DNA of 64,000 bases from an uncultured Acidobacteriota bacterium. Lineage in GTDB: Bacteria; Acidobacteriota; Thermoanaerobaculia; Gp7-AA8. The DNA is taken from the NCBI GenBank assembly GCA_963741955.1, contig CAVUKB010000007.1, positions 736,001 to 800,000 of the forward strand. Reading direction: 5' to 3'. The position numbers and the translations under genes were made by a program. The notes beneath the pieces were generated by a model. The model had not been told where the DNA came from, did not search any database, and worked only from the letters and a program-made list of their open reading frames with translations. Below are positions 867-21,131 of the stretch, piece after piece (position 1 is the stretch's first letter; every line of letters starts with the position of its first letter).

Positions 867-913
867 AGTCTACCCGCTGTCCCTTCTGCGGGACGGGGGA
901 ACGAGGGGTGGCG

Positions 914-3900
914 ATGATCACGGCCGAAAAGGTCCGCTCCTGTCGGGGAACGCGCGAAGTCGCGGCTCTCTTCCGCGAGCTCGGTTATCCGATCCGGCTC
1001 CAGCCGCTCGATCCCGCTGCGTGGAGGGCGCTCTGGGTCACTCCGCCTGCCGGTCTGCGGGTGAGTCACGCCTGCGGATTCCCGGGATTCGATCTCTACT
1101 TCGTGGAGGGGTCGGGTGAGGACGCTCCGCGATTCGCAGCCGAGATGGTCGGTCGTTTCGCACATCGAAACCGCATTCACAAGACGGTCATCGTCTACAT
1201 CGATGATCGCAGCGACCGCTTTTCGCTTTTCGGTCAGAACTCCCGCGGTCGACTTCGGAGGATCGATTTCCATCCCGACGAATCTCCCTCCGCCATTGCG
1301 GACCGGTTGAACCTCCTGGCCGTCCCGCCGGCCGACGCTGCCTCCGAGCTGCCCCGGATCTTCGATCGGATGATGGACCGGGAAGAGGTCACGGCCCGCT
1401 TCTTCGCCGCGTTCCGGCGCATGGTGGAGAGGCTGACCAGAGCGCTCCGGCTCCGGTGCCCGGGTGAGACGAACGAAGCCGTGGCGGACGAAGCGCTACT
1501 GATTCTTTCGCGGATTCTCTTTCTCTACTTCGTTCAGCAGAAAGGATGGCTGGACGAACGCGGGAGCTTTCTGGTCGACGCTCTGCATTCGGCGATGGCG
1601 GCCGGCACGGAGTTCTACTCCACGGTCCTGGTCCCGCTCTTCTTCGAATGTCTGAACACCCCGCTCGAGGATCGCTCGAGCCGCGCATGCGGGCTCGGAC
1701 GCATCCCGTATCTCAACGGCGGACTCTTCGAACCGTCGCCGTTCGAGCTGCGCAACCGTTCCCTCTCGATTCCGGACGAACTGTTCGTCGATGCCATCGA
1801 AGGGGTGTTCGAGCGGTTCAGCTTCACCATCGAGGAAACCGCTCCCGGAGACGGGAGAATCGATCCGGAGATGCTCGGGCGGGTCTTCGAATCGCTGATG
1901 GAAGGGGCGGAGCGGCTGACCAGCGGGAGCTATTACACTCCGCGTCCGATCGTCGACGCACTGGTGGAGCGCTCGATCGTGGAGTGGCTCTCCGAGGGTG
2001 ACGAGAGCCTGGGTGAAGTTCTGAAGTCGATGCTCGCGGGCGACGTCTGTATGGTCGGCTACGAGCTCGCAGTCGGAGCGCTTGCACGGTTGCGACGGAT
2101 TACGTTGCTCGATCCGGCTTGCGGGTCCGGCGCGTTTCTCCTCTCTGCGCTCTCGGTGATCGAGCGGCTCGTGCGCGCTCTCTCCGCGACCGTAGAGCAA
2201 CCCGTGCCGCCGGAGCTGCGGCGGTCGATCGTGGAGCAGTCGCTCTTCGGAGTCGATCTGAAGAGCCAGGCGGTCCGGCTGTGCGAGCTGCGGCTCTGGC
2301 TCGCGATCGTCGCCGGAACCGATTCCCCGATCGAGAAGGTTCGCCCTCTTCCGAATCTCGACCGGAACATCCGGCAGGGGAACTCACTCCTGAGCCCTCT
2401 CGACTTTCTCGGTGACGCGCGTCGGGAGATCTACCGCGAGTGGTCGTACGCGCTCCGTGCCCAGCGCGAGCTCCTTCTCCGCTACCGTCATGCGCTTCCG
2501 GAGCAGAAGCCGGATCTCGCGAGAATGCTGCGCAGCTGGGATCTCGACCTGGCGAAGGCCCTTCTGCGGAAAGCGGTGGAACGTGATGAAGAGGAGCTCG
2601 CGGCACTCTCCGCTCCTGGACCCGACCTCTTCGGAAATGAGCGGAAGGAGAACAGCTGCGAGAAGAACGCGCTGCTCGCCCGTCTGGACGAGAACCGGCG
2701 CGGGCTGGAGCGCGTCGAGCGGGGAGACCTCTGGTTCTTCTCCTTCGAGCTCCACTTCGCTCCGATCATGGCTGCCGGCGGATTCGACGTGGTGGCGGGC
2801 AATCCTCCCTGGGTGAGGAACAGCCGGATTCCACGCAACGAGAAGCGCTTCTACTCGGAACGATATCGATTCTTCCGACCCTCTCCCGGTCAGCGCGGCT
2901 TCGACCAGACGGATCTGGCGGTGGCATTCGTCGAACGCTCTCTCTCGCTCGCCGCACGCGACGGCGTCGTCTCGCTGCTCGTCCCCTCGAAGGTCCTCGG
3001 CGCCGGCTACGCCGCCGGGATGCGCGCCGTGCTCGCGCGCGATCATTCCATCGTCGCGATCGACGACTGGAGCGCCGATGCGCAGAAGCACTTCGGCGCC
3101 GACACGTTCCCGCTCGGGATCACCGTGCGTACCGCTCCGGGTCCTCATCAGGTCGAGCTCACGTCCGGAGGAGTGCGGGAGCGCATCGACCAGAGCGATC
3201 TCACCATCGAAGGAGGAGAGAGCGCGTGGGTGCTTCTCCCTTCAGCGGTCCGGAAGCTCGCAGTCCGGATCGGCTCCGCTCACTCTCCGATGCGCGAGGT
3301 GCTCCTCCGGAGCCCGGTGATGGGTATCAAGACCGGCGCGAACCGTACGTTCTTTCTGGAGGGGATCGAGATCACTGCGGAAGGACTTCTCCATCGGCCA
3401 TCGAACGTGGTGATCCCTCGCTCGGGGATCGTCCGCTGCGTTCGGGGGCGTGACGTGCGGCGGTGGAAAGCGATGCATTCGACGTGGATGCTCTGGCCTC
3501 CTGCCGAGGGTTGGCCCGACCCCCTCCCGGAATGGATCTCGCGGCTGGGCGAATGGCTCGAGGCCGATCCCCGCTCCCTTCGTCTCGCGTTCGTCCGCCC
3601 GGAGCACATCGGAATCAAGGTCGCATGGCGCGACGTGTCGAGAGGGATGAACGCCGCGGTGCTGCCGGACGTCTCGTCGATCGGAGAGTCGGAGTTTCTC
3701 GTCGTGCCGAACCAGACTCTCTATTCGATCGACGCTTCGAATCTCGAAGAGGCGTACTTCATATCCGCGATTCTGAACTCGAGCGTGTTCGGTGCGCTTG
3801 CAGTGTCGCGAGCCGAGCGCGCGAAGGATTTCCACTTCCGCTATTTCGGCTCGATGATCGGGACGATTCCGATTCCCCGCGTTCCGTCGGGCGACGCGAA

Positions 3901-4057
3901 CTTCTCGGCGCTGGTCCGTCTTGCCCGTCAGGCCCATCGCGGAACGGATGTCGATGCGGACGTCGATGCTCTCGTGGCCCGTCTCTACGGGATCGAGGAG
4001 AGGGAACAGCGGACGCTCGAGCGGTACCTGCAGGAGCGGCTGCGGACGGGCGCGTGA
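914..4057 (+). CDS. Eco57I/type IIG-like N6-adenine DNA methyltransferase with C-terminal target-recognition region
   Basis: YLNGGLF, IDPEMLGRVFESL, GSYYTP, motif I LDPACGSGAFL and motif IV GFDVVAGNPPW. Start is ATG 914 or GTG 908. Confidence 0.9.
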   Translation: MITAEKVRSCRGTREVAALFRELGYPIRLQPLDPAAWRALWVTPPAGLRVSHACGFPGFDLYFVEGSGEDAPRFAAEMVGRFAHRNRIHKTVIVYIDDRSDRFSLFGQNSRGRLRRIDFHPDESPSAIADRLNLLAVPPADAASELPRIFDRMMDREEVTARFFAAFRRMVERLTRALRLRCPGETNEAVADEALLILSRILFLYFVQQKGWLDERGSFLVDALHSAMAAGTEFYSTVLVPLFFECLNTPLEDRSSRACGLGRIPYLNGGLFEPSPFELRNRSLSIPDELFVDAIEGVFERFSFTIEETAPGDGRIDPEMLGRVFESLMEGAERLTSGSYYTPRPIVDALVERSIVEWLSEGDESLGEVLKSMLAGDVCMVGYELAVGALARLRRITLLDPACGSGAFLLSALSVIERLVRALSATVEQPVPPELRRSIVEQSLFGVDLKSQAVRLCELRLWLAIVAGTDSPIEKVRPLPNLDRNIRQGNSLLSPLDFLGDARREIYREWSYALRAQRELLLRYRHALPEQKPDLARMLRSWDLDLAKALLRKAVERDEEELAALSAPGPDLFGNERKENSCEKNALLARLDENRRGLERVERGDLWFFSFELHFAPIMAAGGFDVVAGNPPWVRNSRIPRNEKRFYSERYRFFRPSPGQRGFDQTDLAVAFVERSLSLAARDGVVSLLVPSKVLGAGYAAGMRAVLARDHSIVAIDDWSADAQKHFGADTFPLGITVRTAPGPHQVELTSGGVRERIDQSDLTIEGGESAWVLLPSAVRKLAVRIGSAHSPMREVLLRSPVMGIKTGANRTFFLEGIEITAEGLLHRPSNVVIPRSGIVRCVRGRDVRRWKAMHSTWMLWPPAEGWPDPLPEWISRLGEWLEADPRSLRLAFVRPEHIGIKVAWRDVSRGMNAAVLPDVSSIGESEFLVVPNQTLYSIDASNLEEAYFISAILNSSVFGALAVSRAERAKDFHFRYFGSMIGTIPIPRVPSGDANFSALVRLARQAHRGTDVDADVDALVARLYGIEEREQRTLERYLQERLRTGA

Positions 4058-6105
4058 AGAACGGCGTGAAGAATGGCGAGGAGCTCGCGTCCGTTCTGGA
4101 GCGGTTTCGAGCCGTGAACCCGCCGGGCGATCCGCGGCTCGCGCCTCACCAGCAGTCGGGTGCAGCGCGGGTGCTCGCCCTCCTCCGGTCGTTCGGCGGA
4201 GCGATCCTCGCCGACCTCACCGGGACCGGGAAATCATGGACCGCCGCTGCGGTTGCGAAGCGACTCGCGGAGCGCGGCTTTGCGATCGAGCTGCTCGTCC
4301 CGGCCGCATTGATCCCGCAGTGGAAGGACGTCCTTTCACGTTTCGAGCTTCCGGAGGCGGCGCTCCTCTCGCACGAATCGATCCATCGCCGGGACGCGAG
4401 GATTCCGATTCCCGGCGAGGAGAGGTTTCTGGTCGTGGACGAAGCGCACCGTTTTCGAAATCCGGCGACGCAGCGATACGACGCACTGCAGCGCCGCTCC
4501 ATCGGATGCCGGCTGCTGCTGATGACGGCGACCCCACTCTGCAACCGGCTCGGCGACCTTCACGCGCTGGTGCGTCTGCTGGTTTCCGATTCTCTTCTCG
4601 CCGCGATCGGGATTCCGTCCATCGATGAAGCATTCGCGTCCGCGGATCGAGCTGCGGTCCGGACGATCTTCGAGCTGCTGGCCGTCCGCCGCGGAAGAGA
4701 GTCGCTGGAGGGGGCGGTCGCGCTGCCGGGACTGGCGCGCGAGACCGTCCGAATCCCGATCGCTGCGGATGCTGCGCGGCTCCTGCGCATGGTCGACGGT
4801 CTCGAGCTCCCGATGCTGCGAAACGAGACGGATCGCATCCTGGTGCGGCGTTTCCTCCGTCGACGCTTCGATTCGAGTCCGGCCGCGTTCCGCGATTCGG
4901 TACGCCGGCAGGCGCGGTTCTACCGCCGCGTTCTGGAGATGACGCTCCGCGGTGCGGGAGGCAACCGGCGCCGCTTTCGCGACGTCTTCGGATCCGGCGC
5001 GGCGGAGCTCTTCCAGGATCTTCTCTTTCCGGAGCTCTGGTTCGGGGAGGCGGGAGAGCAGGATCTCGACGTCGACGCGCTGCGGAGAGATCTCCGGATT
5101 CTCGATCGTCTTTCGACTCTCGAGGATGAAACGAAGATCACGCGGCTGCAGGAGATCCTCCTCACTTCCGGTCCCGATCCGGTGCTCGTCTACACCGGCT
5201 CCGTCGCGACGGCCGCCGAGCTCTTCGAGCGGCTCCGGGGAGGGCGGCGGAGCGGAATCGTGACGTCGCATCGCTCCGCGCTCGGAGCACTCCGGGTGCG
5301 CGATCCTGCTGCAGTCTTCACCGCGCTCCAGCGCGGCGAGCTCGATCTCCTGATTCTCACCGATCTCGGCGCTGAGGGATTGAACCTGCAGCGTGCCGCC
5401 CTGGTGGTTCACTATGACCTCCCCTGGAATCCGATGCGACTCGAGCAGCGGAACGGCCGGATCTGCAGGATCGGTCAGAGCCGGCCGCGGGTTCGCGCGG
5501 TGTACTTCATCCCGGACGACTTTCGCAGCTCGCCCGAGTTCGGTGCGATTGCGCGGAAGGAACGCCTGCGGAGCGTGATGGGGAGGAAGGGGGATGTGGC
5601 ATTGCGGGAGCCTGCCGAGCCGCCGCTCCGTGGATCGTTCGCCGCGGACTCGAACCGCCGGGTCGCTCTCGTTGCTTGTGATCTGGGGGACGGCGTACGT
5701 GCGGTCGGGCTCTTCCGCGATGGGATGATCGACTTTTCCGTCCCGGCAGTCGCTGCATCGCTGGACGATCTGCGGATGAAGCGCGAACCGTTCTCTCCGC
5801 TCGCTGCCGAAGCAGATTGTCTCGAGATCGGAGTCCGCACACACCTCGCTCTTCCTCCGTGGCTGCCGCCCGGCGCACCGCAGCAGATGCTCGCGAGACG
5901 GTGCAGAGGAGCGCGCGGAGGACGGCCGCTGTTGCCGCTTCTGGCCATGCGTCACCGGGCCGGAGTCGAGGCGCTGATCCGGGAAATGGCCTCCGAGATC
6001 ATCGACCGGGACCGCCTGACGTGGTTGAGAGAGATCATGGTGTGGGAGCAGTCGATCTCCCCACCGCGAGCGGATCTGAGGATCTTGGTGGTGATCTGGC
6101 TCTGA
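4054..6105 (+). CDS. SNF2-family (SF2) helicase/ATPase
   Basis: Walker A ADLTGTGKS, DEAH, MTATP, EGLNLQ and YDLPWNPMRLEQRNGRICRIG. GTG 4054 overlaps the MTase stop (GTGA). Confidence 0.88.
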   Translation: MKNGVKNGEELASVLERFRAVNPPGDPRLAPHQQSGAARVLALLRSFGGAILADLTGTGKSWTAAAVAKRLAERGFAIELLVPAALIPQWKDVLSRFELPEAALLSHESIHRRDARIPIPGEERFLVVDEAHRFRNPATQRYDALQRRSIGCRLLLMTATPLCNRLGDLHALVRLLVSDSLLAAIGIPSIDEAFASADRAAVRTIFELLAVRRGRESLEGAVALPGLARETVRIPIAADAARLLRMVDGLELPMLRNETDRILVRRFLRRRFDSSPAAFRDSVRRQARFYRRVLEMTLRGAGGNRRRFRDVFGSGAAELFQDLLFPELWFGEAGEQDLDVDALRRDLRILDRLSTLEDETKITRLQEILLTSGPDPVLVYTGSVATAAELFERLRGGRRSGIVTSHRSALGALRVRDPAAVFTALQRGELDLLILTDLGAEGLNLQRAALVVHYDLPWNPMRLEQRNGRICRIGQSRPRVRAVYFIPDDFRSSPEFGAIARKERLRSVMGRKGDVALREPAEPPLRGSFAADSNRRVALVACDLGDGVRAVGLFRDGMIDFSVPAVAASLDDLRMKREPFSPLAAEADCLEIGVRTHLALPPWLPPGAPQQMLARRCRGARGGRPLLPLLAMRHRAGVEALIREMASEIIDRDRLTWLREIMVWEQSISPPRADLRILVVIWL

Positions 6106-14402: not shown

Positions 14403-14777
14403 CTACCGATTGTCGCGGGACTCACTCGGGGCCGGCTTTTCTGGTTTGGCGTTCTCCGGCAGGACGTACACCGTCTCTCCCGGTTTCGACATGTCGAGGT
14501 GCTCGCGGGCGATCCGCTCGACGGCGAAGGTCGATTTCCGGAGACTCTCGATCTCCTTCTTCAGGCGGTCGTTTTCTCCTTTCAGGCGGTCGATCTCGAC
14601 CTGGAGGTCGTGGACCCGCTTGCGCGACTGCTGGAGCTCGGAGATCCCGCGCTGGCTGAACGCGAACGAGACGAGGAAGACGATGGTCAGCACCGCGCCG
14701 AGGAGGACGACGACCTTCAGGGTGGTGCGGGTCGTCTTCCGGCTGTCGTGCAGCGACACGGTGGGAGGGATGGGCAC
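14403..14777 (-). CDS. ftsB: Septum formation initiator FtsB/DivIC
   Basis: One TM helix, a coiled coil and ERIAREHLDMSKPGETVY. Start GTG 14777 was chosen from the promoter position. Confidence 0.85.
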   Translation of the reverse strand: MPIPPTVSLHDSRKTTRTTLKVVVLLGAVLTIVFLVSFAFSQRGISELQQSRKRVHDLQVEIDRLKGENDRLKKEIESLRKSTFAVERIAREHLDMSKPGETVYVLPENAKPEKPAPSESRDNR

Positions 14778-14783
14778 GAGGGT

Positions 14784-14812
14784 AGTGTCGAATTCGCGGC
14801 CCCGGGTGTCAA
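14784..14812 (-). promoter_or_regulatory. Sigma-70 promoter for ftsB
   Basis: TTGACA-17 nt-GACACT, then 6 nt to GTG. Confidence 0.6.
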
Positions 14813-14838
14813 TGGGGGCGCCGGCTTCCAGCCGGAAA

Positions 14839-14890
14839 GTGGGTCGCACGTCTCGTGCGAAGCTCGCCGGCGTGTCGCCGGCGAGCGATG
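14839..14890 (+). repeat. GTGGG double-hairpin REP-like element, copy 3 (both stems perfect)
   Basis: GTGGG-TCGCACG-tct-CGTGCGA-a-GCTCGCCGGCG-tgt-CGCCGGCGAGC-GATG. Confidence 0.8.
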
Positions 14891-15025
14891 TGTGCGGACG
14901 TCATCACCCGCGGCGCTGGCGTTATCCGCGTTTGCGCCCCCTCCGCCTGAGTCCCGACCCTGCCGGCCTGCGACGAGCAGGGCGGCGCGGGACGCCGCCC
15001 TGCTCGAGAAGAAATGGGAATGACC

Positions 15026-15848
15026 CTACTTCGGCGTCACCAGCGTCACGTGTTGCGTCTCGTTGTTCGTGATACTGACGAATGCCCAGATTCTTCGTCC
15101 GGGATCGAGCGGCTTCACCTCGATGGCGATGTGTCGAAATTCAGAACCGCCGGGAAGGAATCCGAAATCGAGGTCACCTGAGCGAACCGGGGTGGGCAGG
15201 CAGATCGACTTGTCTCGGGAAGGTATTCGAGGTTCATTGGGAACTCCAGAAACGGATCGGCGTCGCCAGTGTCTCCCTGTTGTTCCGGGAGGCGGAATAG
15301 TCGGACGAGCACCCGCGATGTGCCTGGGTTCTCGAGATCGTAAACACGCAACGCCGCGCGGAAGGGCTCTCGTGTGGGAACGCCAAGAAGGTACACCGGA
15401 GTGCTCTCCGCGATCTCGCTCCGTCGGACAACGGGAATTTCCGTGCCGCAGGTGAGTGCCTGACGGGAACGGTCGGCGATTCTCAATTGCAGGTGCATCG
15501 CCGCCGCTCGTGCTTGCCGACCGACACTAGGATGCCCGGGTTCGGGCCGACGCTCCAGTCCGAATCGGATGGCCGCCACTGGTACACGCTCGCGGGAGGG
15601 AACTGCGGTGGCATCTGACATCCTTCGAGAACGCAGAATGGCTCGCCGGTGAACAATGGGACTTCTCGACCACTGGTGTTCCAGGCCCAGAGCACCGTAG
15701 TCCATAGGGAGCCGTACGCACCCTCCACCGGGTATCGCAACCCAATGGGTAGCAGAAGCCTGTCGTAGTCGTCAGGACTCTGGTACTGAGCGTGACCCAA
15801 CGCACACGTGAGAAACATCAGAACAGAGATCAGGACCTTAGCTTTCAT
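15026..15848 (-). pseudogene. Frameshifted paralogue of the secreted protein at 16075-16896
   Basis: Pieces in different frames align with the intact copy (YDRLLLP...GAYGSLW / LQLRIADRSRQ...TEIPVVR / WAFVSITNNETQHVTLVTPK). Breaks are near 15510, 15190-15215 and 15134 and may be sequencing errors. Confidence 0.8.
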
Positions 15849-15868
15849 TTTAAGCTCCAGCAGCTCGG

Positions 15869-16021
15869 TCAAGGACAAGATCCAGCCAGATAAAGGCGGC
15901 GATTCGTGGTATACGGTGGAGGTCGAAAGGGACTCTGGTTCGTCGTCGCATTATTCCGGAGGTACTCCCAAGCTTGATCCGGGACAACGCGGCTGTAATT
16001 GTTTGAGTCACCATAGTGGAA
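15869..16021 (-). pseudogene. Orphan 50-aa C-terminal fragment of an S8 protease homologue
   Basis: FHYGDSNNYSRVVPDQAWEYLRNNATTNQSPFRPPPYTTNRRLYLAGSCP* is 39/50 identical to the end of 16919-18355 and has no start codon. Confidence 0.88.
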
Positions 16022-16074
16022 GTGGGCAGGGCGGCGCGGGACGCCGCCCTGCTCGAGAAGAAATGGGAATGACC

Positions 16075-16896
16075 CTACTTCGGCGTCACCAGCGTCACGT
16101 GTTGCGTCTCGTTGTTCGTGATACTGACGAATGCCCAGATTCTTCGTCCGGGATCGAGCGGCTTCACCTCGATGGCGATGTGTTCGTAATTCAGAACCGC
16201 CGGGAAGGAATCCGAAATCGATGTCACCTGAGCGAACCCGGGGTGAACGGGGAACGGTGAGGCCTCTCCCGGGACATAGTGGAGATCGAGCGGAAATTCA
16301 AGGAACGGCGTGGCATCACCGGTGTCACCCTGTTCCTCGGGAACTCGAAAGATTCGAACGAGGACTCGCGATGACCCCGGATCCTCCAGGTCGTAGACTC
16401 GCAACGTGGCCCGGAAAGGATCACGAGTTGGAATTCCAAGGAGGTGAACCGGAGCGCTTTCAGGAATCCCGCTTCTCCGGACCACAGGAAGCTCCGTTCC
16501 GAAGTTGAGTTCCTGTCTTGAGAGATCGGTGATTCTCAGCTGAAGCTGGACCGAGTCCTCCTTCTCCTTCCAGACCGAGACGAAGACTCCCGGATTCGAA
16601 GCATCTCCGTAATACGTCAACCCCCACTGGTACAGCTCACCGGCCGGCAGAACCGGCGGCCCGGAGCACCCTTCAACTCCGCAGGTCCCGTTTCCTTGAA
16701 CGAACGGGACGTTCTCTTGGCCGGAGTTCCACACCCAGAGCGGCGTGGCCCAAACGGAGCCGTAGGCCCCGCTCACGGGGTAGCGCAACATAACCGGAAG
16801 CAAGAGCCGGTCATAATTGTTCGGATCCTCGCTCTGAGCGAGCCCCAATGCGCTCGCGAGTAGAATCAGAAGTGAGACGATTATCCGTCGTTTCAT
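16075..16896 (-). CDS. Secreted hypothetical protein (S8 protease-associated)
   Basis: Signal peptide MKRRIIVSLLILLASALGLA, SD GGAG, CxxxxC and C-terminal WAFVSITNNETQHVTLVTP. Confidence 0.8.
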   Translation of the reverse strand: MKRRIIVSLLILLASALGLAQSEDPNNYDRLLLPVMLRYPVSGAYGSVWATPLWVWNSGQENVPFVQGNGTCGVEGCSGPPVLPAGELYQWGLTYYGDASNPGVFVSVWKEKEDSVQLQLRITDLSRQELNFGTELPVVRRSGIPESAPVHLLGIPTRDPFRATLRVYDLEDPGSSRVLVRIFRVPEEQGDTGDATPFLEFPLDLHYVPGEASPFPVHPGFAQVTSISDSFPAVLNYEHIAIEVKPLDPGRRIWAFVSITNNETQHVTLVTPK

Positions 16897-16918
16897 AGCA
16901 ATCTCCAAAGAGTTCCGT

Positions 16919-18355
16919 TCAGGGACAGGCCCCGGGAAGGTACAACCGCCGATTGGTCGTGTACGGGGGCGGTGAAAAGGGACTCTGGTTGGTTGTTGCA
17001 TTGTTTCGAATGTAGTCCCAAGTCTGGTCAGGGACCGTCCGCGCAAAATTGTTCGGATCCAGGTAATGGAACAAGCCGAGATACGCGGCTACCGCACTCG
17101 AAACGATGGGTGCGGAAAACGACGTACCGCTGGTGTAGCTCTGCCGTTCGACCGATGGGTCGCACCCTGCCTTCGGGCGCGATCCGTCAGCATTCGTCCA
17201 GACGCATTTCGGATCGAATCCCGCTGAGCGGATCGCCTCAGCTGGTGCGAAGAGATCGACGTACGGCCCCCAGTTCGAACCATGTTCTGGGCCGACGCCA
17301 GGGGTCACTTCCCACCGGAAGTCGGATGTTCCCGGAATGCCCAGACCACCGACGGTGATGACATTTCCCCCGCCGCTGCGGGCCAGTCGTGACGGTGAGT
17401 AGTTTTGTGCATAGTCATTCTGATTGTTCGCAGACACGATCACTGTAATGCCATTGTTCACGAGGGCATCGATTTTCTCTTCAACGAATGTGGGATCGGG
17501 ATCACCGTTGGACCAGAAGTAGAAGCTCATATTGGCAAGACTCGGCCGGTACGAAGAATCAGGATTGCATGCGGGCGGATTCAGCCCTCCACCACAGCTT
17601 GTAAGAATCCAGTCGAGTCCGGTCGCGACCTTGTCCGACTCTACCACCCCGTAACAATCAGCCACTCTGACGGAACGGATCGCCGCATCGGGAGCGACGC
17701 CAAAGGTATTACCAGCAATGAGTGAAGCGACGGCCGTGCCATGGCCTGCAGTGTACACGGTGTCCCCATAGAAGGCGCTCATGTGCGCACATGGCCAAAC
17801 GGCCTCGAGATTGCTACAGGCGCCCATGCAGTTGTCGAGTATATCGACTCCCCCGTCAACCTTTCCGGCGAGTTCGGAGTGAATTCCAAGGACTCCAGTA
17901 TCGACGACGTAAGCAAGGGCACCCGCGCCACGCCCGCAATAGAGGAATAGATTGTCAAGCGGCAGTGTCTGCTGATCGACCCGGTCGAGATGCCAGATCT
18001 TGCCGTCCGGACCCGACGCACCCACATTTCGGACACTCGAAGTCTCGCCGTCGACTCCTTCGGCGATTTCTTCGACGTATCGAACCGCTGCGTCTGAGCT
18101 TATTCGCTCAGCAGTCTTTTCGTCGCAAGTCAGCACGAAACCGGTCGGCTCGATTCGAAACACGTGCTCCACGATCCCATGGTACTTCTTCGCAAGGTCG
18201 CTGGCGAGGATTTCCGGCGACGACGTTCCGGCAGGAAACGCCACGATATAGCGGCCCGGCACGTTTTTCGGGTTCTTACGGATCTTCCCATCCCCGGCGA
18301 AAAGCGGCACCGCCAGAGCGACGCAGATGAACAACAAGAGCAGGCGCTTGGTCAT
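16919..18355 (-). CDS. Secreted S8 (subtilisin/proteinase K-like) serine protease with I9-like propeptide
   Basis: Signal peptide; triad motifs VVDTG, GHGTAVAS and SGTSFSAP; SD AAGGAGGT. Confidence 0.93.
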   Translation of the reverse strand: MTKRLLLLFICVALAVPLFAGDGKIRKNPKNVPGRYIVAFPAGTSSPEILASDLAKKYHGIVEHVFRIEPTGFVLTCDEKTAERISSDAAVRYVEEIAEGVDGETSSVRNVGASGPDGKIWHLDRVDQQTLPLDNLFLYCGRGAGALAYVVDTGVLGIHSELAGKVDGGVDILDNCMGACSNLEAVWPCAHMSAFYGDTVYTAGHGTAVASLIAGNTFGVAPDAAIRSVRVADCYGVVESDKVATGLDWILTSCGGGLNPPACNPDSSYRPSLANMSFYFWSNGDPDPTFVEEKIDALVNNGITVIVSANNQNDYAQNYSPSRLARSGGGNVITVGGLGIPGTSDFRWEVTPGVGPEHGSNWGPYVDLFAPAEAIRSAGFDPKCVWTNADGSRPKAGCDPSVERQSYTSGTSFSAPIVSSAVAAYLGLFHYLDPNNFARTVPDQTWDYIRNNATTNQSPFSPPPYTTNRRLYLPGACP

Positions 18356-18791
18356 AGGACCTCCTTGCGCGGCAACCTAAGCCTTCGAGACAGCTCGAGC
18401 AACGGGCATTTTGAAACGCCCCGAGGGTATGAACCGCCGCAACGGTAAATCTGCATCTGAATTTGCGCCTTGAGCGTCGTGGAGTCTGCTGAAAGTGAGA
18501 TCTGCAGAAACGGTCGAGTGAGTTGACGGATGCGTAACCGAAGTGTGACGCGACGGTTCCGACGCCCAGTGACGTGCAGGCGAGCAGTTGCATGAGGAAA
18601 TCCGCTCGTGCGCTTGCAATCATCTGCCTGAGCTCCGGCAAGCCGCACTTCGCCGCTCGGCGCGCGAGACTGACGGGGTGAGTTCCGAGTTGCTGAGCGA
18701 GCTCCGACACCCGAGGTGGAGTGGCCGCTTCGAGGCAGCCAAGAACATATCGATCGATTTCACGACGGAGAGTCGAGCAGGGAATGCGCAT
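18276..18791 (-). CDS. AraC-like HTH DNA-binding protein (no sensor domain; C-terminus reads into the S8 gene)
   Basis: SD AGGAGG; RVSELAQQLG...LARR and VASHFGYASVNSLDRFCRSHFQQTP resemble the two AraC HTH motifs. Confidence 0.65.
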   Translation of the reverse strand: MRIPCSTLRREIDRYVLGCLEAATPPRVSELAQQLGTHPVSLARRAAKCGLPELRQMIASARADFLMQLLACTSLGVGTVASHFGYASVNSLDRFCRSHFQQTPRRSRRKFRCRFTVAAVHTLGAFQNARCSSCLEGLGCRARRSYDQAPALVVHLRRSGGAAFRRGWEDP

Positions 18792-18882
18792 GAGTCCTCC
18801 TGTTCAGGAGTTCCTCCAGACGGCCGGATCGGTACCCGCGATTCAAGCTCGTCACTCGAGGCTGTGACGGTCGTGCTTTGGA

Positions 18883-20277
18883 TCACGTCCGCGGTTTGCT
18901 CTTGGGGTCCGGCTCCACTTCGCGCAGCGACTCCGCGATGTCATGGGGGACGTTTCGATGGACGTCTTCGATGCGGCGAAGGGTGATTCCCCCCTCGAAC
19001 TGCCACTCGTGCTTCGGGCGGTAGACGCCGATGTCGTGGATGCGCGCGCCGACGACGAACTGGAGCACGCCGCGGCGGTAGTCGAACGCGCGGCCGCTCT
19101 TCGTGTGGATCGCCGCGTCGATGCGGTACGAGCCGGCGACGAGATCGAGCGACGGGATGACGAAGCGCACTTGGCCGTCGCCGTCGATGCGCTCGGGGGT
19201 CAGACCTTCCAGTTCGGTGTTCGTCCCGTAGACGCAGGTTCCGTCGGCGTGGTAGATCCCGACGCCGAACACGAAGTCCTCCTGCGGCTCGCGGACTCGA
19301 ACGTCCATTTCGAGGGTGACCGGCGAGCCGGGACCGAGCGCGACGAGCTGCTGGCCGTCCGGACCGGTGAGTGTGACGTTCTGCAGGAGCACTTCACCCG
19401 AGCCCCAGCGCTCTTCTTCCGCTTCCTCTCCCGTCTTCGCCTTCTCTGCGGGCTGCGGCTCCGGCGCTTCCTTCTCCTCGGGGGTGACGCCGGTGCGCAT
19501 GCTGATGCCGCTCTTTCCCCTCTTGTGGCCCTCCGTGACCTGCTGGAGGTACTGATCGACCACCCGCACCGGATCGCCCAGTCCGGCCACTTCGCCGCGC
19601 TCGAGCCACACCGCGCGGTCGCAGATCGTCCGCACGAGATCGAGCTGGTGTGTCACGAACAGCATCGTCACGCCGCGGTACTTCATCTCCTGGATCTTCG
19701 CGATGCACTGCTGCGAGAACTCCTCGTCTCCGACCGAGAGGACCTCGTCGATCAGGAGAATGTCCGGATCGACGTGCACTGCCACGGCGAAGCCGAGCCG
19801 CACGTACATTCCCGACGAATACGTTTTCACCGGCTGCTCGAGGAAGTCGCCGATCCCGGAGAACTCCACGATCCGGTCGTAGCGTTTCGCGATCTCCTTC
19901 TTCGAGAGCCCGAGCATCATCGCGTTGATGAAGATGTTCTCCCGACCGCTGATCTCCGGATGGAATCCCGCACCGAGCTCGATCAGAGCCGAGATCCGCC
20001 CATCGACGACGACCTCGCCGCGAGTCGGCTTGAGGATCCCCGAGACGAGCTTGAGGAGCGTCGATTTTCCCGACCCGTTGCGCCCAACGACGCCGAATGC
20101 CTCGCCGCGATTGACCGCGAAGCTCACGTTCCGCAACGCGACGACCGACTTCTCCGGCGGCGGGATCAGCTCGCGCTTGAGGAGCGCGCTCTTGAGCGTC
20201 TGGAGCTGCGACTTCACGCCGTAGAGGCGGTAGCTCTTCGACAGATCTCGGGCGACGATCGGGTATTCGCTGCTCAA
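18883..20277 (-). CDS. wzt: Polysaccharide ABC exporter ATP-binding subunit with Wzt C-terminal domain
   Basis: GRNGSGKS, YSSGM, DEVLSVGD and RWGSGE starting the Wzt_C domain. The TTG start overlaps the wzm stop. Confidence 0.9.
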   Translation of the reverse strand: MSSEYPIVARDLSKSYRLYGVKSQLQTLKSALLKRELIPPPEKSVVALRNVSFAVNRGEAFGVVGRNGSGKSTLLKLVSGILKPTRGEVVVDGRISALIELGAGFHPEISGRENIFINAMMLGLSKKEIAKRYDRIVEFSGIGDFLEQPVKTYSSGMYVRLGFAVAVHVDPDILLIDEVLSVGDEEFSQQCIAKIQEMKYRGVTMLFVTHQLDLVRTICDRAVWLERGEVAGLGDPVRVVDQYLQQVTEGHKRGKSGISMRTGVTPEEKEAPEPQPAEKAKTGEEAEEERWGSGEVLLQNVTLTGPDGQQLVALGPGSPVTLEMDVRVREPQEDFVFGVGIYHADGTCVYGTNTELEGLTPERIDGDGQVRFVIPSLDLVAGSYRIDAAIHTKSGRAFDYRRGVLQFVVGARIHDIGVYRPKHEWQFEGGITLRRIEDVHRNVPHDIAESLREVEPDPKSKPRT

Positions 20278-21131
20278 ATCGCCTCCGCCAGCGTATCGCG
20301 CAGCCGGTCGAACACGACGAAGCCGAGGGCGAGGAACGCGAACGCCCAGATCACCATCAGGCTCATGTCGAGCCCGTTCGGCCATCGCGCGAAGAAAAAG
20401 ACGTCCTGGTAGCCGATGGCGAACGAGGTCATCGGATTGACGCGCAGGAGCGAGCGGAGGGTGGGAGAACCGATGTCGCCGAGGTAGTAGATGATCGGCG
20501 TGAGAAAGAAGGCGAGCTGCATCAGGTTCGCGACCAGATCGCGCAGATCGCGGAAGAGCACCGACGCCGACGCGACGACGAGCGAGATCCCGGCGACCAG
20601 CATCGTCTGGAGGAGCATCAGCACCGGCACCAGAAGCAGTGGCCAGCCGAACGTGATTTTCCCGAGGAACCCCGCGACTCCGAGCGCCACGAAGAGAATC
20701 GGAAGCGCCAGGAGAAAGTGAACCAGGTGCGACAGCACCACCACCAGCGGCAGCGCCTCGGCGGGAAACATCACCTTCTTGATCAGCCCCGCGTTTCCGG
20801 CGACCGCAGTCGTCGACTCGAGGATTGCTCCGGCGAAGAACGTCCAGGGAAGGATCCCGGTGAAGAGAAAGACCGAATACGGATCGACCCCGCCCGGCCT
20901 GGTGAAGAAATGTCCGAAGATCAGCGTGTAGACGCCGAGAAGGAGGAGCGGATTGGCGAGGGACCAGAAAAAGCCGAGGACCGAACCGCGGTAGCGGGCC
21001 TTCAGATCGCGCGAGGTGAGGGCGGCGATGAGCTGCCGGTGACGCCAGATGGTCTCCAGCTCTTCGACCAGGACGTTCGAGCGGGGAGAAGCGAGTGCCG
21101 GACCGGGAGCCGCCACTGGACGGTTCCTCAC
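20274..21131 (-). CDS. wzm: Polysaccharide ABC exporter permease
   Basis: RDLKARYRGSVLGFFWSLANPL, FRDL, TPIIY and NPM. Confidence 0.9.
   Translation of the reverse strand: MRNRPVAAPGPALASPRSNVLVEELETIWRHRQLIAALTSRDLKARYRGSVLGFFWSLANPLLLLGVYTLIFGHFFTRPGGVDPYSVFLFTGILPWTFFAGAILESTTAVAGNAGLIKKVMFPAEALPLVVVLSHLVHFLLALPILFVALGVAGFLGKITFGWPLLLVPVLMLLQTMLVAGISLVVASASVLFRDLRDLVANLMQLAFFLTPIIYYLGDIGSPTLRSLLRVNPMTSFAIGYQDVFFFARWPNGLDMSLMVIWAFAFLALGFVVFDRLRDTLAEAI

Follow-up and report, generated by a model that had tools for sequence, protein, structure and literature searches.

How does a protease gene come to be followed, one gene further on, by a second and start-less copy of its own last 50 codons? 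The question is raised by a locus in a 64,000-nucleotide (nt) stretch of DNA from an uncultured Acidobacteriota bacterium (Thermoanaerobaculia; Gp7-AA8; GenBank assembly GCA_963741955.1, contig CAVUKB010000007.1, positions 736,001 to 800,000), here called the window and numbered from its first letter. On the minus strand, an AraC-like regulator with a helix-turn-helix (HTH) domain is followed by a predicted secreted protease of peptidase family S8, a gene for a predicted secreted protein termed partner A, a hairpin, the start-less S8 tail, the region of a second partner gene (partner B), and another hairpin. A preliminary description of the sequence had given this order, which open reading frame (ORF), Pfam, and repeat analyses confirm. 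It had also proposed that the tail and the partner form an exchangeable cassette, as in polymorphic toxin systems, and this proposal fares much less well. It is rather likely that the second unit is the relic of another, diverged S8-partner operon, which was truncated at the hairpin and is now decaying.

Two Head-to-Tail Units

A repeat search and pairwise alignment resolve the locus into a head-to-tail repeat with a period of 1,049-1,050 nt and no spacer: unit A occupies positions 16026-17075 and unit B positions 14977-16025. Each unit spans the S8 gene from about codon 429 onward, the partner gene, and a GC-rich hairpin. The resident S8 gene (16919..18355, minus strand) encodes 478 amino acids (aa), and the gene for partner A (16075..16896, minus strand; 273 aa) starts 22 nt past its end. 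The duplicated unit had been said to begin inside the protease gene, after the catalytic serine; this is borne out, and since an alignment of 33 S8 sequences (A3) places the invariant serine at S412, the unit start lies 17 residues past it.

Both hairpins fold with a z-score of about -5.3, and none of 200 shuffled sequences folded equally well. The claim that the same hairpin ends both units needs qualification. A GC-rich hairpin does stand at the end of each, but the unit junction trims 3 bp off the 3′ arm of hairpin A (16026..16052, minus strand), leaving a stem of 12 bp, whereas hairpin B (14974..15006, minus strand) has the full 15-bp stem.

The two units are unevenly alike. Their last 158 nt are 100% identical and the adjacent 59 nt are 95% identical, together making up a near-identical 3′ block in unit B (14977..15192, aligned with 16026-16242); elsewhere, identity in 60-nt windows is about 50-78%, with an abrupt step from one level to the other. 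As judged from the alignment, this pattern is a recombination mosaic. Among all sequences retrieved, units A and B are mutual nearest relatives.

Origin of the Orphan Tail

The orphan S8 tail (15869..16021, minus strand) consists of 50 codons (15872-16021) and a stop codon, and is homologous to S8 residues 429-478. It has no start codon, and no ORF of at least 40 aa beginning with ATG, GTG, or TTG spans it. The tail and the resident sequence share 39 of 50 amino acids and 102 of 150 nt, so that the start-less protease C-terminus stands as first described. A tblastn match had suggested homology over 67 aa; the extra 17 residues cross the hairpin with only about three identities, and were attributed to chance.

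Did the tail decay in place, or did it diverge while it was still part of a working gene? The 48 differences in 150 nt are distributed 10/5/33 over the three codon positions, with no stop codon and no indel. By the method of Nei and Gojobori, the proportion of synonymous differences (pS) is 0.88, which is saturated, and that of nonsynonymous differences (pN) is 0.14. When 48 substitutions were placed at random in 20,000 trials, the mean number of identities was 21 of 50 and the maximum was 30; no trial reached 39, and 23% were free of stop codons. The bias towards synonymous differences implies that the tail diverged within a translated and constrained S8 gene and was orphaned recently. An origin from a functional S8 homologue, rather than by decay in place, is thus supported, in keeping with the preliminary description.

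Among 120 S8 homologues, the nearest relative of the orphan tail is the resident S8 protease (78%), and the next comparable match reaches 43%. The longest identical run that the resident and orphan tails share in their alignment is about 15 nt, making them a poor substrate for recombinational switching.

Two Frameshifts in Partner B

Partner B had been taken for an intact second gene, but it reads in three frames. The first piece (15510..15848, minus strand) covers a signal-peptide-like segment and the N-terminal domain, and its frame continues to a stop codon at 15483. The second (15136..15498, minus strand) lies in another frame and is contained in a 196-aa ORF (15115-15705); the third (15026..15133, minus strand) supplies the final 35 codons (15029-15133) and the stop codon in a third frame. 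Two frameshifts are thus uncompensated, while two more indels (-2 and -1) cancel each other. The first frameshift lies outside any homopolymer, and the second falls between the 158-nt and 59-nt sub-blocks of the near-identical 3′ block; one frameshift is a one-base difference in a run of A (AA versus A). As it stands in the assembly, partner B is a pseudogene.

The divergence between the partners differs along their length. The N-terminal domains are identical at 54 of 110 aa (49%), with a nonsynonymous rate (dN) of 0.44, a synonymous rate (dS) of 1.23, and a dN/dS of about 0.35. The middle parts agree at 88 of 121 aa (73%; dN 0.17, dS 1.6, dN/dS about 0.11), and the last 35 codons match at 35 of 35 aa without a nucleotide difference (dN 0, dS 0). 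Over its full length, partner B shares 62% identity with partner A, against a maximum of 39% with other full-length matches. Partner B diverged under past purifying selection.

Long ORFs of up to 1,087 aa, with high GC content at third codon positions (GC3), cover 84% of the remaining window, and inspection of the ORF list revealed no split gene among them. Two random sequencing indels within about 820 nt are therefore unlikely.

Relatives in Other Genomes

Is the layout found elsewhere? A census taking one genome per species kept 78 loci, from about 50 metagenome-assembled genomes (MAGs), out of 137 matching stretches; the best partner identity was 41%. The C-terminal 70 residues of nine S8 genes, together with the orphan tail, served as queries at E <= 1 against the window and these loci. 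The search gave no second orphan tail, and none of the nine other S8-partner pairs had one. All clear matches fell on the 3′ ends of full S8 genes or on an S8 gene running off the fetched stretch (L068).

Linkage of partner and S8 genes holds for one part of the family. Eight of the 78 loci (L002, L006, L007, L008 with two pairs, L010, L014, L029, and L048) have a partner gene immediately preceded by an S8 gene, and five of these eight rank in the top ten by similarity to partner A. The genes are separated by only -13 to +32 nt in 8 of the 9 pairs from these other genomes, and in three of the eight loci (L002 and L048 by Pfam, L007 by tblastn) a small AraC-type HTH gene lies directly upstream of the S8 gene. 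Given these tight gaps and the recurring regulator, AraC-S8-partner is a genuine module of one subfamily. In the remaining 70 loci the partner has no S8 gene beside it and its neighbours are unrelated, for example RuvB in three.

Arrays of partner genes are common: at least two partner matches occur in 23 of the 78 loci, and up to six in L073. These arrays often lack an S8 gene, and none contains an orphan tail. Head-to-tail units bearing partner genes were found at L044:7666-9861 (1,115 nt, 81% identity), L074:7201-9624 (1,209 nt, 87%), and L078:2540-5201 (1,294 nt, 80%), and units of 0.7-1.3 kb with partner genes also occur in L049, L053, and L063. Tandem duplication is thus a habit of the partner family that does not depend on S8. 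Neighbouring S8-partner pairs exist as well: L008 has two within 7.5 kb, and in L006 the order is partner-S8-partner.

Signs of decay are present among these relatives. In L006, an S8 ORF (710-2270) extends over no more than the first half of the Peptidase_S8 profile, the tail following 250 nt further on, and in L035 a partner copy (5112-5827) is matched in two different frames. Both cases fit a birth-and-death regime.

Two convergent partner genes in L007, one of them forming a pair with an S8 gene, flank an ORF (2809-3552) that encodes the N-terminal domain of an IS4-type transposase. A 478-aa ORF upstream of a partner gene in the same locus (L007:470-1903) was considered as a hidden S8 gene and rejected (hhalign probability 2.9%, no Pfam match).

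A Probable Relic of a Second Operon

The tail does not fit a plain duplication followed by drift; a second functional S8-partner pair must have existed. This pair might have been a tandem paralogous operon downstream of the resident one, or else an allele that was resident here until an incoming one displaced it. A break in the 3′ arm of the hairpin, through illegitimate recombination or deletion, would then have joined the end of operon A to about codon 428 of the second S8 gene, with loss of that gene's promoter and of its first ~428 codons, or 86% of its length. Having lost both promoter and protease, partner B would have gained its two frameshifts and would have no present function, and gene conversion between the tandem copies may have homogenised the 3′ ~217 nt.

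Such a history resembles the birth-and-death turnover of tandem paralogues, in which copies arise by duplication, are homogenised by gene conversion, and are lost by pseudogenisation. The tandem units, the homogenised 3′ block, the frameshifted copies, and the family-wide tandem arrays are all features in common. The difference lies in the truncated S8 tail, which shows that the second copy once included an entire protease gene, and not a partner paralogue alone. If the relic reading is true, the locus offers a clean and small example of how an operon remnant originates, with hairpin truncation, gene conversion, and early pseudogenisation all visible. It would also serve as a caution that a polymorphic-toxin-like layout alone is no proof of a toxin-type system.

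Several points weigh against this reading. The signature of selection in the tail is predicted equally by a model of cassette exchange, and S8 and partner do behave as a pair within the subfamily, as the narrow gaps in 8 of 9 cases illustrate. Their pairwise identities correlate across 10 pairs (r 0.64; reached by 0.5% of 5,000 permutations), a correlation that shared ancestry or two long-branch pairs may explain. The junction lies exactly at the end of a full repeat unit, as would also be expected from plain tandem duplication. The frameshifts in partner B are known from the assembly and not from reads, and could be sequencing errors. Since the census, with 78 of 137 stretches and a single genome for each species, holds no close relative (41% at best), the missing orphan tails say little about the source lineage. 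Finally, deletion within a tandem operon pair and displacement by incoming DNA are not separated by any of the evidence.

Alternative Explanations

Could the repeat be an artefact of assembly? Two strain variants with an identical 3′ end might have been strung together in tandem, and an exact repeat of 158 nt does flank the diverged segment. The record is of the metagenome type, and all relatives found are MAGs; moreover, the same S8 protein (462 aa identical) occurs with another 5′ end on short contigs, so that variants or chimeras do exist in the assemblies. Against this, a strain bubble would not create the link between a hairpin truncated by 3 bp and codon ~428 of an S8 gene. The source contig is 1.3 Mb long, both frameshifts are confined to unit B, and the two units share the low GC content of the island in which they lie. 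An artefact is therefore unlikely.

Still less is to be said for an in-place tandem duplication of a 1,050-nt unit, with its left edge inside the S8 gene, followed by drift and later 3′ gene conversion. The exact head-to-tail arrangement without a spacer is what such an event would produce, and tandem partner-bearing units of 0.7-1.3 kb are common in relatives, with 23 of the 78 loci carrying at least two partner matches. An untranslated tail should have drifted neutrally, and the contrast between a pN of 0.14 and a pS of 0.88, without a stop or an indel, is at odds with this, as are the 39 identities observed against a mean of 21 and a maximum of 30 under random placement. The proposal would further need unit B to have been overwritten later by a functional paralogue from elsewhere, and is improbable.

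Equally hard to credit is the proposal that partner B is intact, its frameshifts being sequencing errors, and that the locus holds two working partner paralogues, with the S8 tail a by-product of the arrival of the second. A dN/dS well below 1 would be expected in that case, intact tandem paralogues are the rule in the partner family, and one frameshift is indeed a difference of a single base in an A run. What counts against it are two uncompensated frameshifts in some 820 nt of a window where no other gene looks split, the first of them outside a homopolymer.

The last alternative is the one put forward in the preliminary description: an active system in which S8 tail and partner are cognate, and in which stored orphan cassettes are recombined into the expressed operon, as in contact-dependent inhibition (CDI), Rhs, and type VI secretion system (T6SS) loci. 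As described by Poole et al. (2011; PMC3150448), the orphan cdiA-CT/cdiI modules that lie behind cdiBAI start at a demarcation motif (VENN), past which their C-terminal domains bear no relation to one another; their immunity genes remain intact and expressed, and arrays recur in many species. The likeness to the present locus lies in a start-less 3′ fragment from a functional homologue, with a small partner gene, directly behind an intact pair. The locus differs from the CDI modules in having a tail that lies within the catalytic fold and matches the resident tail at 78% identity, in its frameshifted partner, and in the absence of a second case from 78 loci.

In Vibrio cholerae, displacement of T6SS effector genes leaves behind 3′ effector ends and orphan immunity genes, as set out by Kirchberger et al. 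(2017; PMC5361080). The same paper proposes, for T6SS and Rhs loci, that homology-facilitated illegitimate recombination pushes the old 3′ end and its partner behind a new pair; the retained immunity genes are described as functional and under selection, and the arrays as growing stepwise. Displacement of this kind, which for Rhs C-termini is reportedly the subject of work by Jackson et al. in 2009, is one of the two routes considered here for unit B. The window differs in holding a single decaying unit, with no evidence of toxin or immunity activity.

The evidence for a cassette system is of several kinds. The start-less tail diverged under purifying selection, S8 and partner are tightly coupled in 8 of 9 pairs with correlated identities (r 0.64, 10 pairs), and the N-terminal domain of the partner is the fastest to diverge (49% aa identity, versus 73% in the middle). 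The layout is like that of the orphan modules in PMC3150448 and PMC5361080. The start-less 3′ fragment behind an intact pair is one of four features of CDI, Rhs, and T6SS cassettes that were tested, and the only one found. There is no demarcation motif followed by a separable, highly variable and unrelated C-terminal domain; the tail belongs to the catalytic fold and shares 78% identity with its resident counterpart. The orphan partner is not intact and expressible in the assembly, being broken twice, unlike the intact orphan immunity genes described in PMC3150448. Nor does the layout recur, orphan tails being found in 0 of 78 loci.

Other observations point the same way. An adjacent S8 gene is lacking in 70 of the 78 loci, identical runs in the tail extend for only ~15 nt, and the S8 and partner trees (10 pairs) have only the L007+L048 clade in common. 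An active cassette system is thus very unlikely. A complex prediction for S8 residues 115-478 and partner A residues 22-273, each with an alignment, scored 0.04 against a mark of 0.32; run with no controls, it is uninformative on binding. A full-text literature search returned no S8 orphan cassette among the matches listed, which is not to claim that none is in print. The related proposal that S8-partner modules of Thermoanaerobaculia diversify by 3′ displacement, as Rhs, CDI, and T6SS loci do, is highly doubtful. Here the C-terminal 50 residues of the protease would meet the fast-evolving N-terminal domain of the partner at a cognate interface, and the displaced cassette would have been silenced just recently. 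If true, no earlier cassette-type diversification system would have been built on a secreted serine protease.

The Protease and Its Regulator

Regulator, protease, and partner A would together make up one working module: an AraC-type regulator, a predicted secreted S8 protease, and a tightly coupled, predicted secreted beta-sandwich protein. The regulator ORF (18276..18791, minus strand; 171 aa) overlaps the start of the S8 gene by 80 nt at its 3′ end. Its HTH region (residues 31-109) matches PF12833 (HTH_18) with an E-value of 3.2e-9 and 37.4 bits, above the cut-off of 33.6, while PF00165 stays under its own cut-off. The protein thus belongs to the AraC/XylS type by its HTH domain, and with only ~30 residues before this domain it has no sensor domain.

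The S8 protease has a signal-peptide-like N-terminus, an I9-like propeptide region, and a proteinase-K-type catalytic domain (PF00082, E 3.2e-18). The term secreted, as applied to protease and partner, refers to inspection of the N-termini and a predicted N-terminal helix, and not to a signal-peptide predictor. The catalytic residues are D152, H205, and S412; in alignment A3, D152, H205, and G410-T411-S412 are invariant. An AlphaFold2 (AF2) model with a mean predicted local distance difference test score (pLDDT) of 82.7 matched aqualysin and proteinase K in a Foldseek search, with target-normalised template modelling (TM) scores of 0.80-0.86. The order Asp-His-Ser and the subtilisin fold place the enzyme in the proteinase-K subfamily of S8, and the model and fold search indicate a propeptide and a proteinase-K-type catalytic domain with no further domain. 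Proteinase-K/aqualysin subtilases with an I9 propeptide (PDB 4dzt, 2prk, and 1s2n) share their fold, triad, and propeptide-like N-terminal region with the window S8 protease. A coupled downstream gene for a beta-sandwich partner is not known as a feature of such enzymes.

Is the C-terminal tail a separable unit? In the AF2 model, residues 429-478 comprise the end of the serine helix (411-432), the last helix (442-452), and the closing strands. Because whole mature enzymes (273-282 aa) align with the model at the TM scores given above, the tail is, on this model, part of the catalytic fold and not a separable C-terminal domain.

Many S8 homologues in A3 have a cysteine 1-3 residues before the C-terminus (…CP, …CLP, …CY), as do the resident and orphan tails, and a conserved terminal disulphide in this clade is possible. 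Two further proteins, P0319 (503 aa, partial, on a 2.4-kb contig) and P0320 (472 aa, on a 5.2-kb contig), are 100% identical to the window S8 protease from residue 17 onward (462 aa). They have a different N-terminus without a signal peptide, and their upstream sequence is absent from the window (S8 5′ end, 18308-18355). Such contigs would be chimeric assemblies, or else represent a structural variant of the locus.

The Partner Family

What is the partner? Partner A has a signal-peptide-like N-terminus, an all-beta fold, and the terminal family motif RIWAFVSITNNETQHVTLVTPK. It matches no Pfam or NCBIfam family and no PDB sequence profile, and a Pfam search at E <= 1 with all 27 members of alignment A2 gave nothing better than E 0.1. 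The AF2 model (pLDDT 88, predicted TM score (pTM) 0.85) is all-beta, with two beta-sandwiches; a Foldseek search against PDB returned no match at E <= 1e-3, with TM scores of at most 0.23. Nor did the Pfam, NCBIfam, PDB, or Foldseek searches tie it, by sequence or by fold, to any described family of protease inhibitors or propeptides.

Partner A has 49 relatives of similar length, which belong to Acidobacteriota or Thermoanaerobaculia wherever they are named. A profile search with the family yields 3,444 representative clusters at E <= 1e-3 and 1,844 at 1e-30. Among the 150 best clusters, most proteins stand alone at a length of 244-353 aa, while about 15 exceed this length and usually carry the domain C-terminally. 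Those long forms that were checked carry DUF11, CARDB, or TIG at the N-terminus, and these three are the fusions confirmed at the sequence level. A near-invariant C-terminal motif, WAFVSITNNETQHVTLVTP, reaches the last residues of the protein, and several copies per genome are common. A structure search of the Atlas points to the partner fold in Acidobacteriota clusters with various surface and enzyme domains, among them TIG, PKD, RskA_C, GH32/130, lysyl endopeptidase, Vgb lyase, and multihaem cytochrome domains (TM by query 0.67-0.78), all of which are leads at the structure level.

Two candidate assignments were dropped. DUF5719, an Atlas feature lead with a score of 0.91-0.92, was matched by only 1 of the 27 members, at E 0.22, and the C-terminal extension of P0004, considered as an I9 propeptide, had no Pfam match at E <= 1e-3.

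Because of the predicted fold, the Ig-like fusion partners, and the multi-copy arrays, the partner is tentatively viewed as probably a secreted or surface-associated binding or structural protein, co-expressed with S8 in one subfamily as a substrate or an accessory subunit. A specific inhibitor or immunity role seems less likely. The family, large and without a Pfam model or a solved relative, is the more useful by-product of the analysis, and the conserved AraC-S8-partner module of one subfamily is directly testable.

Genomic Setting

The entire locus, both units included, is contained in a low-GC island (15100..18900), where GC is 57-62% compared with 63-68% on either side. Housekeeping genes bound the island: ftsB (14403-14849) and purB on one side, wzt (18883-20385) and wzm on the other. 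The GC3 of the S8 gene is 0.65, compared with ~0.80 in the other ORFs of the window. The low GC and GC3, together with the position between ftsB and wzt/wzm, suggest that the AraC-S8-partner locus is a horizontally acquired island.

Rfam and tRNA scans of the 64-kb window gave no matches. Elsewhere in the window, an ORF of 1,049 aa for an Eco57I/MmeI-type methylase (908-4057) is followed by a SNF2/helicase ORF (3463-6105), whose longest reading overlaps it by ~600 nt; the two (908-6105) may form a restriction or defence gene pair.

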